DNA of 64,000 bases from Candidatus Lustribacter sp. (GTDB lineage Bacteria; Vulcanimicrobiota; Vulcanimicrobiia; Vulcanimicrobiales; Vulcanimicrobiaceae): positions 2,176,001 through 2,240,000 of the forward strand of contig OZ255842.1 in assembly GCA_965277805.1 (NCBI GenBank), read 5' to 3'. How positions within the stretch are numbered: the first letter of the stretch is position 1; every line of letters starts with the position of its first letter. The notes below the pieces were generated by a model. The model made no database searches, was not told where the DNA came from, and worked only from the letters and a program-made list of their open reading frames with translations. The position numbers and the translations under genes were made by a program. Below are positions 34,742 through 41,845 of the stretch, piece by piece.

Positions 34742-36336
34742 CAGGCGCTCACGAGATCTCGGACGGCCGCTCGTGGCACCGGCTGTTCGTAGCGCAACGC
34801 GATCGTATCGACGCCCGAGAGGATCTGATGGTGTTGCTGCAGCGGATCGATCTGCGGGAAGTCGGTGCGCCTGTGCATGCCGCGGCTCTCGGTGCGCGCG
34901 AGCGCGCTCGTATACGCCCAGCGCGCCGTTGCCGCAAGTGCGGCCGCTTCACGGGAGCGCTGCACCTCGCGCGCGCCGCCAACAACTTCCGCGCTTTGCG
35001 GCATCCCTGATGCCCATAGCCCATCCAGCACCGCGAGCGACGAACGCAGTCCCGCATCGGTGCGGAACATGTTTTTCTCGAGCGGCAGCATCTCGTTCTT
35101 CACCCTGGCAATCGCTGCGTCGGACTCGGTGATTTTCCACGTACCGGCGCCGGTGAGGCGTCGCGTCTTGCGCGACGCTCCAAGGCGCAGCGCAAAGGCC
35201 GCAGCGCCTTCGCCGGCCCACGAACCCGAGGACATCGCCCACGCGGCATTGTGACTTCCGCCGCCGGTAAAACCGCCGCAGATGCGTTCGCGCGTCGCCG
35301 CATCGCCGGCTGCATACAGACCCGGTACTCGCGATGCGCAGGTTTCATCCGTGATGCGGATGCCGCCCGTGCCGCGTACCGTTCCTTCGAGTACGAGCGT
35401 CACGGGGAAGCGTTCGTTGAACGGGTCGATGCCGCTGCGGTCGAACGGCAAGAAAAAGTTCGGTTGCGCCAACCGCAGGAAAGCCTGAACCTCGGGTCGC
35501 TCCTTGGCTTTGATCAGTTGCGCGTAGACGGGACCGTTGATCAGCGTCCGGCCGATCGTGGCAGCGGAGTGATGACCGTCCTTGACCGCCTTGATGTCTT
35601 CGCCCGCTTCGTTCGTGAACACGGCCCAACTGTAATGCGCGGTTTTCGTAACGGAGCCGAACACGGTCGAGACGGCGTATTGGCTCGAGAACTCCATACC
35701 GGAAAGCTCCGCTCCCGCTTCGCCGGCGAAGAGATAACCGTCGCCGGTGTTATTGTTCGTGCCGAGCGCCTTGCTCAAGAACGCGCATCCGCCGGTCGCG
35801 ATCACCACGGCACCCGAACGCACGGTCCAGTCACGTTCTTCCTGTTGCTGCACGCCGCGCGCGCCGGCCACGTTGCCGCTGCCGTCGACCAGCAGCTCGA
35901 GTGCAGGGCTATGATCGAGAATCTTCACTCCCGCGCGTGAGATGACTTTGCGCATCAAGCGCATGTACTCCGGACCCTGCAAGTTGCGTCGCACCGTCTC
36001 GCCGTTTTCGCGCGGGAACGGATAGCCCCACGCCTCGACCAGCTCCATGTTCGACCAGGTGCGATCGAGCACGCGATCCATCCAATCGTGGTCGGCGAGA
36101 TAACCGCCGAGCGCTTCGCGTTGCGCCTTGGCCTTTTCGCGATCTTCCGTCGTCGGCGGAATCACCCACACGCCGGTACCGCTCGGCGCGGTCGCGCCGC
36201 TCGAGCCGCAATAGCCCTTATCGACGAGCACGACCGAGGCGCCGGCTTGCGCCGCGTTCCATGCAGCCCACGTTCCGGCGGGTCCGCCCCCGATCACGAG
36301 AACGTCGGCATCGAGTTCCAAGCCGTCCTTAAACAT
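34741..36336 (-). CDS. FAD-dependent oxidoreductase, SdhA/AprA superfamily (AsfA-like)
   Basis: DVLVIGGGPAG, IATGG, NTGDG, GLYAAGD, ARTESRGMHRRTDFP; GAGGT RBS before ATG 36336. Confidence 0.88.
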   Translation of the reverse strand: MFKDGLELDADVLVIGGGPAGTWAAWNAAQAGASVVLVDKGYCGSSGATAPSGTGVWVIPPTTEDREKAKAQREALGGYLADHDWMDRVLDRTWSNMELVEAWGYPFPRENGETVRRNLQGPEYMRLMRKVISRAGVKILDHSPALELLVDGSGNVAGARGVQQQEERDWTVRSGAVVIATGGCAFLSKALGTNNNTGDGYLFAGEAGAELSGMEFSSQYAVSTVFGSVTKTAHYSWAVFTNEAGEDIKAVKDGHHSAATIGRTLINGPVYAQLIKAKERPEVQAFLRLAQPNFFLPFDRSGIDPFNERFPVTLVLEGTVRGTGGIRITDETCASRVPGLYAAGDAATRERICGGFTGGGSHNAAWAMSSGSWAGEGAAAFALRLGASRKTRRLTGAGTWKITESDAAIARVKNEMLPLEKNMFRTDAGLRSSLAVLDGLWASGMPQSAEVVGGAREVQRSREAAALAATARWAYTSALARTESRGMHRRTDFPQIDPLQQHHQILSGVDTIALRYEQPVPRAAVRDLVSA

Positions 36337-36360
36337 TCTTACCTCAAAAGCACGTGTGGG

Positions 36361-36397
36361 AAAAAGAAAAAAGCCCCCCGCCGGTTGGCGGAGGGCT
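36361..36397 (-). terminator. Intrinsic terminator (attenuator) upstream of the AsfA-like gene
   Basis: Minus strand AGCCCTCCGCC-AACC-GGCGGGGGGCT followed by TTTTTCTTTTT. Confidence 0.88.
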
Positions 36398-36427
36398 CGC
36401 ATTCGCACGAACAAACGGTCGAGCGCG

Positions 36428-36493
36428 CTAAACCAGCATCACACCACTACGGCGGACGGTCTCGGCGCAACAACAACGGTTCACGAACGACAT
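36428..36493 (-). CDS. Cys-rich leader peptide MSFVNRCCCAETVRRSGVMLV
   Basis: Own translation; TGT TGT TGC run; ATG 7 nt after -10 TACAGT; terminator follows. Confidence 0.78.
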   Translation of the reverse strand: MSFVNRCCCAETVRRSGVMLV

Positions 36494-36500
36494 CGACGGC

Positions 36501-36566
36501 ACTGTAACACACCCTTCAAGACGCTGTCAAACCGGTTTGACAGCATTCTACACGGCGTGTTATGGT
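36501..36566. promoter_or_regulatory. Back-to-back sigma70-type promoters sharing a 22-bp palindrome
   Basis: GCTGTCAAACCGGTTTGACAGC (36523-36544); plus strand TTGACA 36537-42, 18 nt, TGT-TATGGT 36561-66; minus strand TTGACA 36530-25, 18 nt, TGT-TACAGT 36506-01. Confidence 0.8.
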
Positions 36567-36572
36567 GCGGCC

Positions 36573-36647
36573 ATGTCGGCTCGCCGTTTCGTCTGCACGT
36601 GTCCCTGTTGTCTTGCTGGAAACGAGCGAGCCTTGTTTGTGATGTAG
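36573..36647 (+). CDS. Cys-rich leader peptide MSARRFVCTCPCCLAGNERALFVM
   Basis: Own translation; 4 Cys in 6 codons; ATG 6 nt after -10 TATGGT; alternative hairpins and terminator follow. Confidence 0.82.
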   Translation: MSARRFVCTCPCCLAGNERALFVM

Positions 36648-36671
36648 GCGTTTCTGCCGCCGCGTCCGTGC

Positions 36672-36705
36672 AAGCCCTCGCTCGAGCGAGGGCTTTTTTA
36701 TTTTT
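36672..36705 (+). terminator. Intrinsic terminator (attenuator) upstream of the sulfonate ABC operon
   Basis: AAGCCCTCGC-TCGA-GCGAGGGC followed by TTTTTTATTTTT. Confidence 0.9.
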
Positions 36706-36740
36706 GTTGCCGTCCGCCCGAAAGGCCAGAGACCGTTCGA

Positions 36741-37802
36741 ATGAATCATCACCTTACGCGCCGCGCGAGCCTCGCTGCAATAGGCGCGCTCGTCGCAACC
36801 GGAACCCGCGCATTTGGCGCCGAGGCGACGCCGCCCGTCATCCGCCTCGGCGGGGTCGGCTACGGTTACGGCAAGCCGTTTGGAGAGCACGCCATCGCCG
36901 TCGCGCAAGCCCAACGCTTCGTCGAAGCCGAGACGAAGTTTGCCGTGCGCGTCGAGTATACGTATTTCGACCACACCGGACCGGCCATCAACGAAGCGCT
37001 TGCAGCCGGCCAGCTCGACTTCGCAAGTTATGGCGAACTGCCGCAAATCATCGGCAAGGCGAACGGGCTCCAAACGCGGATCGTCGCCAACGGCGGCATC
37101 AGCAACATCTATGTGGGCGTTCGCAACGGCGTCAAGGCGAACACGATCGCCGATCTCAAAGGACTGCGCGTCACGCTCCAGCGCGGGACCATCTTACATC
37201 AAGCCTTGGATCGGCTGCTCGCCGAAGCCGGCTTGTCCGAAAAAGACATTCAACTCTACGACCTGCCCACGGCCGACCAGTTGACGGCGCTCAGCAGCGG
37301 CCAGGCCGACGCGAGCGTGGGGACCGCATCGCTCCTCACGCTGCGCGATCAGGGCCTGGTGCGCGTCATCTACTCGACGGCAGGCAAGACCACGCCGGAC
37401 GGCATCAACGCCGTTGCCGTCACTGAAGACTTCTCGAGCAAATATCCGGGCGCGACCGGCGCCGTCGTGCGCGCGTTCGTGAAGGCGGCGAATTGGACGG
37501 CCCAGCCGCACAATCGCGACGCCGTGCTGGATATCTGGGCTAAGTCGGGCCCGCCGCGTAAGGTCATCGCCGAAGATCTGGCGGGCCCGCTCAAAGACAC
37601 GGACATTCCGCTCATCGACGAATTGTTCGTGGCCGGTCTCAAAGTCGGCATCGACTTCTCCGTTCGCAACAAGTTGATCCGGCAGGCCTTCGACGTCGAT
37701 GCTTGGATCGACCGGCGCTACGTTGATGCCGCGCTTCGCGATCTCAATCTGGTGAGCTACTGGCAACCGCGCCACGCCCCGCCGTCGCTCGCCAAAGACT
37801 AA
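36741..37802 (+). CDS. Sulfonate ABC solute-binding protein (SsuA/AsfC-like, Tat)
   Basis: LTRRASL signal; GPAINEALAAGQLDFASYGELP, ADLKG motifs. Confidence 0.88.
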   Translation: MNHHLTRRASLAAIGALVATGTRAFGAEATPPVIRLGGVGYGYGKPFGEHAIAVAQAQRFVEAETKFAVRVEYTYFDHTGPAINEALAAGQLDFASYGELPQIIGKANGLQTRIVANGGISNIYVGVRNGVKANTIADLKGLRVTLQRGTILHQALDRLLAEAGLSEKDIQLYDLPTADQLTALSSGQADASVGTASLLTLRDQGLVRVIYSTAGKTTPDGINAVAVTEDFSSKYPGATGAVVRAFVKAANWTAQPHNRDAVLDIWAKSGPPRKVIAEDLAGPLKDTDIPLIDELFVAGLKVGIDFSVRNKLIRQAFDVDAWIDRRYVDAALRDLNLVSYWQPRHAPPSLAKD

Positions 37803-37807
37803 GCCCG

Positions 37808-38647
37808 ATGATACGCGCGATCCCGTTCGTCGACATTGCGAACGCACCGGCCCTCGGACGGCCTGCGCGCGCCGCCGCGCAGCGCGGGCGAAGCCGGTGG
37901 CGCTCGGCCGCTCTCGGCGCGATCGTACCGCTTGCGATACTTGCGCTGTGGTCGCTCACGGTTGCATTGCACGCGATGCGATCGCAAATTTTGCCGAGCC
38001 CGCCGGCGGTGTTGGCCGCAGCAGCCGATTTGCTCCGCAGCGGCGATCTCGCCGCAGCACTCGGCGTGAGCCTCGGACGGGTCGCTCTCGGCCTCGCGAT
38101 CGGAAGCGCCTTCGGCCTCGTTGCGGGCGCTGCGCTTGGGCGCTCGCCGGCGCTCGACGCCTACTTCGGCCCGGCTCTGCGCGCGATCTGCCAGATTCCG
38201 ACGATCGCGTGGCTGCCGGTGTTCATGCTGATCTTCGGTATCGGCGAAGAACTCAAAGTCGCGATCATCGCGAAGGCTGCCTTCCTACCGATGCTGCTCA
38301 ATGCGTTCGCAGGCGTGCGCACCGCGCCGGCGCGCTACCACGAAGTCGCGAACGTGCTGGAATTCAGCCCGCTGCAGCGACTGCGTTTCGTGACGATTCC
38401 ATCCGCGCTGCCGATGATCGTCTCGGGTTTACGCCTGGCATTGAGCAACGCGTGGCACGTGCTCATCGTCGTTGAGATGCTTGCATCCGCATCCGGCATC
38501 GGCCATCTCATGGCGTGGAGCCGCACGCTTTTCCAACTCGACGTCGTTTTCGTCACCGTGGTCGCGATCGGTGCGACCGGGTGGCTCATGGATACCGCGA
38601 TGCGAGCGGCCGAACGCCGTTTGAGCCCCTGGAGCACGTCCGCATGA
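37808..38647 (+). CDS. Sulfonate ABC permease (SsuC-like)
   Basis: ILPSP, IPSALPMIVSGLRLA, SGIGHL motifs. Confidence 0.88.
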   Translation: MIRAIPFVDIANAPALGRPARAAAQRGRSRWRSAALGAIVPLAILALWSLTVALHAMRSQILPSPPAVLAAAADLLRSGDLAAALGVSLGRVALGLAIGSAFGLVAGAALGRSPALDAYFGPALRAICQIPTIAWLPVFMLIFGIGEELKVAIIAKAAFLPMLLNAFAGVRTAPARYHEVANVLEFSPLQRLRFVTIPSALPMIVSGLRLALSNAWHVLIVVEMLASASGIGHLMAWSRTLFQLDVVFVTVVAIGATGWLMDTAMRAAERRLSPWSTSA

Positions 38648-39429
38648 CGCGGCCGCTCGCTCGCCGTCGCATCGATCTTCGCGGCGCCGTCGTTCCTCTG
38701 GTGCTCGCAGTGGGCTGGATCGTCGCCTCGGTGTCGGGCCACTGGGATCCGCACATGCTCGTCCCGCCCGGTCAGCTCGCGCGCGGCTTTATCGCGACGG
38801 CGCAAAACGGCGAGTTTTGGACTGCGGCGGGTGCGAGTCTGCTCCGTCTCGTGACCGGTTGGCTGGCGGGATCGGTCGCCGGCGTTGCGCTCGGCCTCAT
38901 CGCCGGCTGCTCCGCGCCGGCTGAGCAAATAATCGCGCCATCACTCAACGCCGTGCGTCAAGTCGCGCTGTTCGCGTGGATTCCATTGCTCACCGCGTGG
39001 TTCGGCGACGGCAACTCGGCCGAAGTGTTCTTGATCGCGCTCGCGGCGTTTTTTCCGGCCGCACTCAACACCGAAACCGGCTGCCGCAACGCTCCGATCG
39101 CCTTACGCGAAGTGGGCCGCGTCTTGGAATTCGGCCCGCGGGAAATACTTCGCCGCATCATCATTCCGTCAGCCATGCCCTCGATCGCCTCGGGATTGCA
39201 GATCGCCCTGACGTCCGCCTGGATCGGCACGATCGGCGCCGAGTATCTCATCGACCAAGGCAACGGCCTTGGCGTGTTTCTTTCTTCTGCCCGAATGGAT
39301 AATCGCATGGACGTCGTCCTCTTCTGCATCGTTGCCTTAGGCTGCATCGGGTACGGCCTGAGCACCGCGCTCCGTCTCGCCTTTGCGTCCGCTGCGCCGG
39401 CAACGGCACTGGCAGCCCTCGATGACTGA
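38644..39429 (+). CDS. Sulfonate ABC permease (SsuC-like), second
   Basis: RQVALFAWIPLL, IIPSAMPSIASGL; ATGA start. Confidence 0.88.
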   Translation: MTRPLARRRIDLRGAVVPLVLAVGWIVASVSGHWDPHMLVPPGQLARGFIATAQNGEFWTAAGASLLRLVTGWLAGSVAGVALGLIAGCSAPAEQIIAPSLNAVRQVALFAWIPLLTAWFGDGNSAEVFLIALAAFFPAALNTETGCRNAPIALREVGRVLEFGPREILRRIIIPSAMPSIASGLQIALTSAWIGTIGAEYLIDQGNGLGVFLSSARMDNRMDVVLFCIVALGCIGYGLSTALRLAFASAAPATALAALDD

Positions 39430-40183
39430 GCGCGGCCGCCTCGACATTCTCAATGTCGACAAGTCGTTCTACGTCGATGGTGCGGAGGTACGGGCATTGG
39501 CCGGCGTTTCGCTCACGGTGAACGCCGGTGAATTCGTCACCATCGTCGGCCCGAGCGGTTGCGGCAAGTCAACGCTGCTGCGACTGGTGGCCGGTCTCGA
39601 CCGCGCCGGCAACGGCACGGTTTCGTTCGACGGTGAGCCCGTCGTCGAACCGAGCCTGCGCCGCGGCGTCGTCTTTCAAGACCACCGCCTCTTCCCATGG
39701 CTGAACGTCGAAGCCAACGTCGCCACCGGCCTGCTCAAAGCCGGCGGATTCGACGCCGAAAAACGCACAACCGCTTCGCGGCTCATCGCGCTCGTGGGCT
39801 TGAGCGGTTTCGAAAAAGCGTTTCCGCATCAGCTCTCGGGCGGCATGGCACAGCGCGCGGCGATCGCGCGCAGCCTCGCCGCGAAACCCGACATTCTGCT
39901 CCTCGACGAACCCCTCGGTGCGCTGGATTCGCTCACGCGCGGCCGCATGCAGGCCGAGCTGCTGCGCGTCTGGCAGCACGAGAAGACGACGATGCTCATG
40001 GTGACGCACGACGTGGGCGAGGCTGTCTATCTCTCCGATCGCATCGTCGTGATGGATCGCGATCCGGGCCGAATCCGCGAAATTATCGAGGTCCCGTTCC
40101 CCAAACCCCGCACCCGCCTCGACCCCGCCGTCGCCGCCTTCACCGAACGCATCATCGCCCGCCTAGAAACGGCGCCGGCATGA
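39422..40183 (+). CDS. Sulfonate ABC ATP-binding protein (SsuB-like)
   Basis: GPSGCGKS, LSGGMAQR, LLLDEPLGALD. Confidence 0.92.
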   Translation: MTERGRLDILNVDKSFYVDGAEVRALAGVSLTVNAGEFVTIVGPSGCGKSTLLRLVAGLDRAGNGTVSFDGEPVVEPSLRRGVVFQDHRLFPWLNVEANVATGLLKAGGFDAEKRTTASRLIALVGLSGFEKAFPHQLSGGMAQRAAIARSLAAKPDILLLDEPLGALDSLTRGRMQAELLRVWQHEKTTMLMVTHDVGEAVYLSDRIVVMDRDPGRIREIIEVPFPKPRTRLDPAVAAFTERIIARLETAPA

Positions 40184-40249: not shown

Positions 40250-41845
40250 CTAGTATCCGAGCGCAATCCCATCCTTACGCGGATCGCTGCCACCAACGAG
40301 CACCCCACGCTCGCGATCGATAAAGATCGCCTGCCCACCCCCATGCGGCGGATCAACCTCAACCACATGATGCCCGCGCGCCGCTAACCCCTCGCGCGTT
40401 TTCACCGGAATGCCGCGCTCGACATACACATCGCCGAACATCGGCATCACGCGCGGGAGATCCAGCGCCGCCTGCACATCCAGCCCGTGATCGAACATGT
40501 TGGTCAACAGCAAACTCTGCCCGACCGGCTGAAAATGCCCGCCCATCACACCGAAGGGCATCACGGCTTGTCCACCGTGCGTCAGCATTCCCGGGATGAT
40601 CGTATGCATCGGCCGTTTTCCCGGCGCGAGCGCATTCGGATGCCCACGCCGAAGCTCGAACGACTGCCCGCGATTGTGTAACAGCACGCCGCTGCGCTCG
40701 GCATAAATCGTCGAGCCGAAACTCTCGAAGAGCGAGTTGATGAAACTGCATGCGTTCCCGGCTTCATCAACCACCGTGAGATACACCGTATCGCGATGCA
40801 CCGGCAGCCGCGACTCGCCCGGCTCCGGCAACTCCGCCAGCGCCCGATCGTCATCGATCAGCCCGCGCAGCGCACTGAGATACTCGCTCGACAACAGCCG
40901 GTCTACCGGGACCTCAACTGCCGTCGGATCGGCCAGAAACGCATCGCGATCGCGGAACGCCAACCGCGCAGCTTCAATATGACGATGCAGTCGCAGCGCT
41001 CCGAGCGGCCCATCCGCCTTTCCTAGCCCATCTAAGATTCCGAGAATCATCAACGCAATGAGTCCTGAACCGTTCGGCGGGCACTCCCAAACCTCAAAAC
41101 CCTTCCACGCCAACCGAATCGGATCGACAAACTCGGCACCCGTCATACCTGCTGCAAAATCGTCCTCGGTGTGCACGCCGCCGCGGGCCCGGAGCGTCCG
41201 CACGATATCCGCCGCGACCTCGCCGCGATAGAATGCCTCAGCACCGTTCGCCGCAATCGCGCGCAGCGTTTGCGCAAGCGCCGGATTGGACATGCGATCC
41301 CCCGCGCGCGGCGCCTGACCGCGCGGCAGATACGCCGCAAGTCCGGCGCTCCGAAGCCGCGCCGCGCTGAGCCGCCAATCGTAGGCCAGGCGCGGCTGCA
41401 CCACATAGCCTTCGACGGCAAACGCAATCGCCGGCCGCAGTAGCTCATCGAGCCCGCGGCTCCCGAAGCGCGCGCTCAGCGTTACCCACGCCGATATCGC
41501 ACCGGGAATCGTGACCGAGTCCGGGCCGTTCGGGTCGATGAACTGATCGCCGCGTGCTCGAATCGCGTCGAGGTCGATCGCGGCCGGCGCGCGTCCCGAC
41601 CCGTTCAACGCATACACGCGCCCACTGCCCGCCGGCGCGTAGAGACAAAACACGTCCCCGCCGATGCCGGTCGACTGCGGCTCGACTACCGCCAGCACCG
41701 CCGCCGCCGTAATCGCCGCATCCATTGCGTTTCCGCCGCATCGCAACATGTCGACCGCTGCCGACGTTGCTTGCGGCATCGAGGTCGCCGCCATGCCGTG
41801 GTCCGCGTACATCGGGCCCCGGCCGGGCGCATGAAAATCGCGCAT
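40250..41845 (-). CDS. ggt: Gamma-glutamyltransferase family protein
   Basis: GGNAMDAA, STGIGGD, DTVYLTVVD nucleophile Thr, KRPMHTIIP, GSDPRKDG. Confidence 0.9.
   Translation of the reverse strand: MRDFHAPGRGPMYADHGMAATSMPQATSAAVDMLRCGGNAMDAAITAAAVLAVVEPQSTGIGGDVFCLYAPAGSGRVYALNGSGRAPAAIDLDAIRARGDQFIDPNGPDSVTIPGAISAWVTLSARFGSRGLDELLRPAIAFAVEGYVVQPRLAYDWRLSAARLRSAGLAAYLPRGQAPRAGDRMSNPALAQTLRAIAANGAEAFYRGEVAADIVRTLRARGGVHTEDDFAAGMTGAEFVDPIRLAWKGFEVWECPPNGSGLIALMILGILDGLGKADGPLGALRLHRHIEAARLAFRDRDAFLADPTAVEVPVDRLLSSEYLSALRGLIDDDRALAELPEPGESRLPVHRDTVYLTVVDEAGNACSFINSLFESFGSTIYAERSGVLLHNRGQSFELRRGHPNALAPGKRPMHTIIPGMLTHGGQAVMPFGVMGGHFQPVGQSLLLTNMFDHGLDVQAALDLPRVMPMFGDVYVERGIPVKTREGLAARGHHVVEVDPPHGGGQAIFIDRERGVLVGGSDPRKDGIALGY

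Follow-up and report, generated by a model that had tools for sequence, protein, structure and literature searches.

The window, as we call the whole stretch of 64,000 nucleotides that was analysed, comes from a little-studied soil bacterium of the Vulcanimicrobiota (Eremiobacterota), and the attenuator candidate described here lies on its plus strand, in the intergenic region 36337-36740. The features of the element and of the genes around it are collected in the table. The operon downstream encodes an ABC importer, which presumably serves an organosulfur compound, and the closest relatives of its binding protein, 89% and 80% identical, come from MAGs that carry the label Vulcanimicrobiota. 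A gamma-glutamyltransferase gene (40250-41845, minus strand) converges on the end of this operon, a neighbour that may provide a link to glutathione-derived sulfur. The gene upstream of the element is divergent, and as such the terminator at 36672-36695 does not end a plus-strand gene.

Table. Features of the candidate attenuator, the operon that it would control and the twin unit on the opposite strand (window coordinates).
Feature	Position	Strand	Details or basis
Promoter	36537..36566	+	-35 TTGACA 36537-36542, 18-nt spacer, TG 36558-36559, -10 TATGGT 36561-36566
Leader ORF	36573..36647	+	ATG 36573, 24 codons, TAG 36645-36647; translation predicted
Regulatory Cys codons	36594..36611	+	at 36594, 36600, 36606 and 36609; TGT in three of four
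Segment 1 (5' arm of the 1:2 anti-antiterminator)	36578..36590	+	folding; shuffles; pairing in homologues
Segment 2	36619..36636	+	36619-36632 pairs with segment 1; 36623-36630 and 36632-36636 pair with segment 3
Middle hairpin, containing the stop codon	36641..36666	+	RNAalifold consensus
Segment 3	36670..36684	+	terminator 5' arm 36672-36681, one flanking bp, three loop bases
Segment 4 and T-run	36686..36708	+	terminator 3' arm 36686-36695; T-run 36696-36708 (terminator scan)
Controlled operon (putative)	36741..40183	+	SsuA-family binding protein, two SsuC/TauC-like permeases, ATPase (NCBIfam, Pfam)
SsuA-family periplasmic binding protein gene	36741-37802	+	first gene after the leader
SsuC/TauC-like permeases	37808-38647 and ORF 38515-39429	+	
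ABC ATPase	ORF 39383-40183	+	
Twin unit	36371..36530	-	-35 36530-36525; -10 36506-36501; ORF 36493-36428; terminator 36398-36371

The -10 box of the plus-strand promoter is of the extended type and ends 6 nt before the ATG at 36573. In a consensus scan of 36200-36900 two promoter-like sites were found, against 0.1 in shuffled sequence, and among the aligned homologues described below neither the -35 box nor the TGnTAnnnT -10 box varies. A layout like that of the window promoter also stands upstream of all 19 of the leaders listed in this study, with 5-10 nt between the end of the -10 box and the start codon. Such proximity of the -10 box to the ATG leaves no space for a Shine-Dalgarno sequence, and a leaderless mRNA is therefore predicted, with transcription probably starting at or next to the A of the ATG, a feature on which the original prediction was silent. 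Within the leader ORF cysteine is encoded by codons 8, 10, 12 and 13, that is by four of six consecutive codons, the last two of them adjacent. The original prediction for this DNA had placed these Cys codons, at 36594-36611, between segments 1 and 2 of an attenuator, and this position agrees with the window.

On the minus strand the same intergenic region holds a twin unit, a second and likewise probably leaderless Cys leader, whose ORF of 21 codons includes three consecutive Cys codons and begins 7 nt after its -10 box. Its strong terminator is followed by a Shine-Dalgarno sequence and an operon (36336-33068, minus strand) for a FAD flavoprotein (36336-34744), a 4Fe-4S ferredoxin and a Rieske/LigXa-type oxygenase, which is probably a sulfur-starvation oxygenase system. 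The plus- and minus-strand units meet in a 16-bp palindrome (36527-36542) formed by their two back-to-back -35 boxes. A palindrome of this length could be the site of a regulatory protein, in which case the short ORF would be no sensor, but would either encode a functional cysteine-rich peptide or go untranslated, and the hairpin behind it would be an ordinary terminator or insulator. We give this reading very little weight, even though translation of the ORF is a prediction and the homologues are without covariation. The palindrome consists of two -35 boxes, and both of these are intact in the homologue L002, where the palindrome centre differs; the terminator, moreover, precedes genes of the same strand and does not mark the end of any gene. 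The comparative data given below argue against it further.

A complete set of 1:2, 2:3 and 3:4 pairings had been proposed for the plus-strand leader, with segment 1 (36578-36590) pairing to 36619-36632 of segment 2, and 36623-36635 alternatively pairing to the 5' arm of the terminator at 36671-36684. Each of these strings occurs in the window exactly where it had been placed, and energies were computed for all three pairings. The 1:2 hairpin has 13 bp with one bulge, a predicted energy of -24.3 kcal/mol, and encloses the Cys codons. The 2:3 structure, at -32.3 kcal/mol, is built from 8 bp (36623-36630 with 36677-36684) and 5 bp (36632-36636 with 36670-36674) around an inner hairpin at 36641-36666, and engages 8 of the 10 bases of the terminator 5' arm plus three loop bases. 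The terminator hairpin itself (36672-36695) is a GC-rich stem of 10 bp with a loop of 4 nt, at -18.8 kcal/mol, and is followed directly by the T-run. A permissive Rfam search of 35500-37500 gave 19 weak matches, none of them near its gathering score, and no leader family of this kind; the best match, Leu_leader, reached 17.8 bits against a gathering score of 50 and covered the terminator alone.

The anatomy of the leader is better than chance. Its overall fold has a z-score of -3.26, matched by 0 of 200 shuffles, and the 1:2 duplex was reached by none of 1000 dinucleotide shuffles, while 34 of 1000 reached the observed value for the 2:3 duplex. The significance of the 2:3 complementarity depends on how the terminator arm is defined, since 9 of 500 shuffles reach the observed value when the loop is included in the arm and 55 of 300 when the arm is cut strictly at the end of the stem. 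That the ORF and hairpins are a functionless arrangement produced by chance seems to us hardly credible. GC-rich sequence does pair easily, and a shuffled upstream sequence sequesters the terminator arm with a mean probability of 0.56; but none of 2000 shuffles had a segment able to form both pairings at the observed strength, the element is conserved in six homologues from different genomes and metagenomes, and its design recurs before cysH-type genes of the family, as set out below.

Footprint-constrained folding had been named as a check on the original prediction. In our model the RNA 3' of the ribosome was folded alone, with the footprint taken to end 12 or 15 nt downstream of the first base of the P site; a masking model that let pairs span the ribosome was dropped as physically unrealistic and replaced by this folding of 3' RNA only. 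Free RNA is predicted to fold into the 1:2 hairpin, the middle hairpin and the terminator, with a terminator probability of 0.90. With the A site on Cys codon 8, 10, 12 or 13 the 2:3 antiterminator becomes the minimum-energy structure in five of eight settings, the probabilities across these settings ranging over 0.06-0.67 for the 2:3 pairing and 0.30-0.84 for the terminator, whereas from codon 15 through the stop codon the terminator prevails (0.89-0.97). Codon 13, which is the final Cys codon, is also the last A-site position at which the 8-bp core of segment 2 lies outside the footprint, so that in the footprint model a ribosome at the regulatory codons would free segment 2 and one at the stop codon would block it. 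This is in agreement with the original proposal that stalling frees segment 2 and full translation leads to termination, as in trp and his leaders, a proposal supported by both the folding model and the comparative data. The further suggestion that a ribosome stalled on cysteine masks segment 1 holds in part. The footprint would cover segment 1 for a stall at Cys8 or Cys10 but not at Cys12 or Cys13; at these two codons the ribosome would sit inside the loop of the 1:2 hairpin and block its formation sterically.

In the model the antiterminator at equilibrium never clearly beats the terminator, and with so small an equilibrium advantage the switch would have to be kinetic and depend on segment 3 being synthesised ahead of segment 4. 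In nascent RNA cut after the terminator 5' arm, this arm is 0.7-0.8 paired with the ribosome at the Cys codons and 0.1-0.4 paired with the ribosome at codon 17 to the stop. Sequestration of the arm in nascent RNA, at 0.81, is however a weak statistic, being reached by 20 of 200 shuffled upstream sequences. Of the 19 leaders, 10, among them the close homologue L002+, kept the terminator at equilibrium wherever the ribosome was placed, and in two others its probability dipped just to about 0.7. In the closest homologue (L001, 2830-2965), a changed base in the 3' arm weakens the terminator, and its free RNA is predicted to favour the antiterminated form (terminator probability 0.13).

The persistence of the terminator at equilibrium in many leaders could also be read to mean that the leader does sense cysteine, but controls the first gene at the level of translation, as is the case in mycobacteria, or works by way of Rho, with the T-run hairpin setting a constant basal level. 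The fold of the read-through RNA is compatible with such an output, in that the 20 nt before the transporter ATG at 36741 pair with the central part of the leader and have a probability of just 0.40 of being unpaired. We give little credence to this reading, because a strong terminator follows every leader of this design, because segment 2 complements the terminator arm more than expected by chance, both in the window and in 12 of 22 leaders, and because the positions of the last Cys codon and of the stop fit a terminator switch.

Genomes and one metagenome scan yielded six distinct versions of the leader (window, L001, L002, L014, L066 and L058), the metagenome scan contributing two new distinct sequences among 15 stretches; a matching scan of a genome collection gave no new distinct version, and its three pattern matches outside the Vulcanimicrobiota failed the covariance model. 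The gene for the binding protein follows the leader in five of the six, and a FAD flavoprotein gene follows L014. Invariant or nearly so are the -35 and -10 boxes, the ATG, the cores of segments 1 and 2, an 8-nt stop motif and the terminator, and the start codon with its flanks does not vary at all. Each version keeps 3-5 Cys codons while the other residues of the peptide differ. The 12-nt core of segment 2 (36624-36635) is invariant in all six, although three of the versions read it in one frame and three in another. An 8-mer that does not vary either (36640-36647) provides a TGA at 36640 and, in a different frame, a TAG at 36645; the TGA ends the ORF in two versions and the TAG in four, so that the ribosome would stop at the same position in every version. 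A segment 2 core read in two frames, together with a constant stop site, argues that selection acts on the RNA and on the position of the stop rather than on the peptide.

Pairing is likewise maintained in these six homologues. The outer 7 bp of the segment 1 helix are paired in 97.6% of cells of the alignment, the middle hairpin in 92.6%, with one-sided changes, and the terminator helix in 100%; taken as whole structures, the terminated form has 96.8% and the antiterminated form 92.1% of cells paired, against 22-64% for slid controls. Two-sided changes are essentially absent among the six very similar homologues, and the 2:3 core and most pairs of the 1:2 hairpin and the terminator are invariant. 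As the observed covariation values are reached by 500 of 500 and 93 of 500 shuffles, these controls are uninformative, and with homologues this similar covariation neither supports nor refutes the structure.

The strongest support for an attenuator is the comparative evidence from leaders of like design in the same family. A covariance model of the window element, R1, was searched across 151 genomes of the family and matched in 62 of them at E <= 0.01; in the window's own genome the window element itself was the only match with a strong score. R1 matches the minus-strand twin at 24 bits, and it matches the counterparts of the twin in L001 and L002. Fifteen of the 26 published R1 loci inspected were ends of genes or tRNAs with terminators. 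The remaining 11 contained 12 promoter-proximal short ORFs, seven with a Cys run, three with a Met run, one with four Pro codons and one ambiguous, and their promoters have a -35 box of the TTGACx type (one deviates) and a TAnnnT -10 box that ends 5-10 nt before the start codon. The genes after the seven Cys-run leaders encode a PAPS reductase, a NIR_SIR sulfite reductase, a TauE/SafE permease, two PF12974 binding proteins, a homoserine dehydrogenase and one protein without a Pfam family, while the three Met-run leaders all stand upstream of Cys/Met PLP enzymes.

The leader upstream of the homoserine dehydrogenase gene (L034:1484-1625) mixes Cys and Met codons. The Met-rich leaderless leaders, each with a terminator, come from three other genera of the family (L033, 1645-1501, minus strand; L040, 1501-1639; L047, 1468-1610), and we know of no classical leader-peptide attenuator for methionine. 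At L050:1501-1645 four consecutive Pro codons and a terminator precede a gene for P5C reductase (proC), a single example. Three leaders lie within about 2 kb in one genome (L047 and L098; G102:C2, ~173300-175700), where a minus-strand Cys leader precedes a sulfite reductase gene, a Met leader a Cys/Met PLP enzyme gene and a Cys leader a cysH-type gene. In the window's genome, at position 476753 (+; L021 ~1491-1630), an Ile/Leu/Val leader in which seven of seven consecutive codons specify these amino acids, with a promoter and a terminator, precedes ilvC and a gene for an ilvB-like TPP enzyme.

An unbiased test was made on cysH-type genes, for which the 28 published loci among the best 30 of the family were scanned for a same-strand promoter, an ORF of 10-40 codons and a terminator, a leader counting as Cys-rich with at least 3 Cys in 7 codons. 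A Cys-rich leader unit precedes the cysH-type gene in 12 of the 28 loci, one of which duplicates a locus found with R1, and in two more the leader has 2 Cys. A cysH-type gene was found in 1 of 32 genomes of a sister family. Scanning both strands of the whole 5.53-Mb genome of the window gave seven hits, three of them Cys-rich and all three before sulfur-related operons: the two in the window and one before a cysH-type gene at position 335402, which a stricter scan missed and a looser one recovered. Another of the seven is the ilv leader. The cysH leader (335402, plus strand; L085:1234) is Cys-rich, has 26 codons, a promoter and a terminator, and stands before a gene for a cysH-type PAPS/APS reductase. 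The genome of the window has at least three predicted Cys leaders, and across the family the predicted Cys-run leaders of the window design go with sulfur-assimilation genes. The counted leaders are in part related to each other, and as such the counts overstate their independence.

Two further properties of these leaders bear on how they might work. In 12 of 22 Cys leaders the sequence downstream of the final Cys codon shows more complementarity to the terminator arm and loop than 95% of shuffles do, and when the arm stops strictly where the stem ends 5 of 22 lie at or below 5% of shuffles. In 26 leaders TGT accounts for 83 of 115 Cys codons (72%), compared with 15% in 2974 long ORFs, a baseline taken from the window genome alone; neutral intergenic composition would by our own estimate give about 40-45% TGT, still below 72%. 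A bias towards this rare codon fits a device for stalling, and speaks against a short ORF that senses nothing. So does the finding that the peptides share Cys runs alone across loci, and that the amino acid of the run tracks the downstream pathway, whether Cys, Met, Pro or Ile/Leu/Val.

We consider it very likely that the window element is a cysteine-responsive, ribosome-mediated transcription attenuator. A sigma-70-type promoter would start the mRNA at or next to the ATG, placing the 24-codon leader on a leaderless transcript. When Cys-tRNA is plentiful, the ribosome would reach the stop at 36645 and cover segment 2, so that the terminator at 36672-36695 could form and, with the T-run, stop transcription before the transporter genes. 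With the leader untranslated, segments 1 and 2 would pair and the terminator would form too. When Cys-tRNA is scarce, a ribosome stalled at codons 8-13 would prevent the 1:2 pairing and leave segment 2 free to take the 5' arm of the terminator once this is transcribed, and RNA polymerase would read on into the operon for the SsuA-type ABC importer.

On balance we also favour the wider proposition that the Vulcanimicrobiota possess a family-wide network of leaderless leader peptides with terminator/antiterminator switches that control several pathways, the window element being one node of it and some units being arranged as back-to-back twins with overlapping -35 boxes. Such a network, if true, would include Cys leaders before cysH-type genes, sulfite reductase, TauE, SsuA-type importers and the FAD/ferredoxin/Rieske operon, Met leaders before genes of methionine synthesis, a Pro leader before proC and Ile/Leu/Val leaders before ilv genes. 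The control of cysteine synthesis and sulfur assimilation is in the textbooks ascribed to proteins such as CysB, to riboswitches or to T-boxes. To our knowledge ribosome-read sensing of cysteine has been shown experimentally in mycobacteria alone, where it acts on translation. The window element would apply the full classical design of transcription attenuation to cysteine, on an mRNA that is probably leaderless, and would do so in a phylum for which a single cultured species is named among the papers listed. A Cys leader could further serve as a tool for annotation, marking genes that are otherwise unassignable as sulfur-starvation genes; those so marked here are the SsuA-like importer and the FAD/ferredoxin/Rieske oxygenase operon. 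The divergent twin arrangement would also be a compact model for leaderless translation coupled to termination.

Among described systems with Cys codons, the mycobacterial leaderless polycysteine sORFs of the 'Cys ribulon' attenuate translation via RNA structures that hide the ribosome-binding site, and the parts of that report available to us leave transcriptional action at other loci open (Canestrari et al. 2020, 10.1101/834739). As far as that account goes, these sORFs and the window leader are alike in that operons for cysteine or sulfur metabolism open with a leaderless short cistron containing consecutive Cys codons, the leaderless start being a prediction in the window, and in both cases several loci per genome would form a ribosome-read regulon, with at least three leaders in the window genome. 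The two differ in that the single mycobacterial case dissected in the portion seen frees a ribosome-binding site and has no intrinsic terminator, whereas the Vulcanimicrobiota leaders each have a strong hairpin, a T-run and an overlapping antiterminator, are unrelated in sequence and belong to another phylum.

A predicted ribosome-mediated attenuator with two Cys codons and an intrinsic terminator, uORFC-8-2, has been reported upstream of cysS in Rhodobacterales (Brewer et al. 2021, PMC8632094). From the extract consulted, it resembles the window element in that the first stem contains tandem Cys codons and the terminal stem is followed by a U-run, a likeness of architecture alone. Its target is an alpha-proteobacterial cysteinyl-tRNA synthetase, its two Cys codons are at positions 14-15 and the extract describes no leaderless start, whereas the window element has four Cys codons, a target in sulfur uptake or assimilation and an unrelated sequence. 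On the same extract, membership of the window element in this cysS motif was considered and rejected, the gene downstream being of the SsuA family and the relatives Vulcanimicrobiota. For Actinobacteria, short ORFs with Cys runs have been noted upstream of cys and cbs operons, with no terminator that could be recognised and with Rho suggested by the authors, in the sections of that work at hand (Seliverstov et al. 2005, PMC1262725). On those sections, the runs of Cys codons in a short ORF are common to both, while the window differs in having a full set of terminator and antiterminator.

Our literature search covered sources other than subscription journals and supplements; within it, the Eremiobacterota were not linked with the term 'leader peptide', terminator-based Cys attenuation of sulfur assimilation genes was not described, and phrases for Cys leaders led to nothing outside the mycobacterial line. 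Among the top 12 of 187 records listed for the phylum, one paper names the Eremiobacterota and uses the word 'leaderless' once.

The classical transcription attenuators with leader peptides are those of the enterobacterial trp, his, leu, thr, ilv and pheA operons. The window element shares with them a short leader ORF in which codons for the sensed amino acid are clustered, 1:2, 2:3 and 3:4 hairpins that exclude one another, and an intrinsic terminator before the operon, and its predicted logic is the same, in that stalling would lead to the antiterminator, and full translation or none to termination. It differs in that cysteine would be sensed and that genes for a sulfonate-type ABC importer take the place of a biosynthetic operon as the target, in the position of the Cys codons, which lie in the loop between segments 1 and 2 and not within segment 1, and in having an apparently leaderless mRNA, a host among the Vulcanimicrobiota and no match to a leader family in Rfam. 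With these differences, the window element has the sequence-level features of a classical attenuator, and is predicted to work like one.
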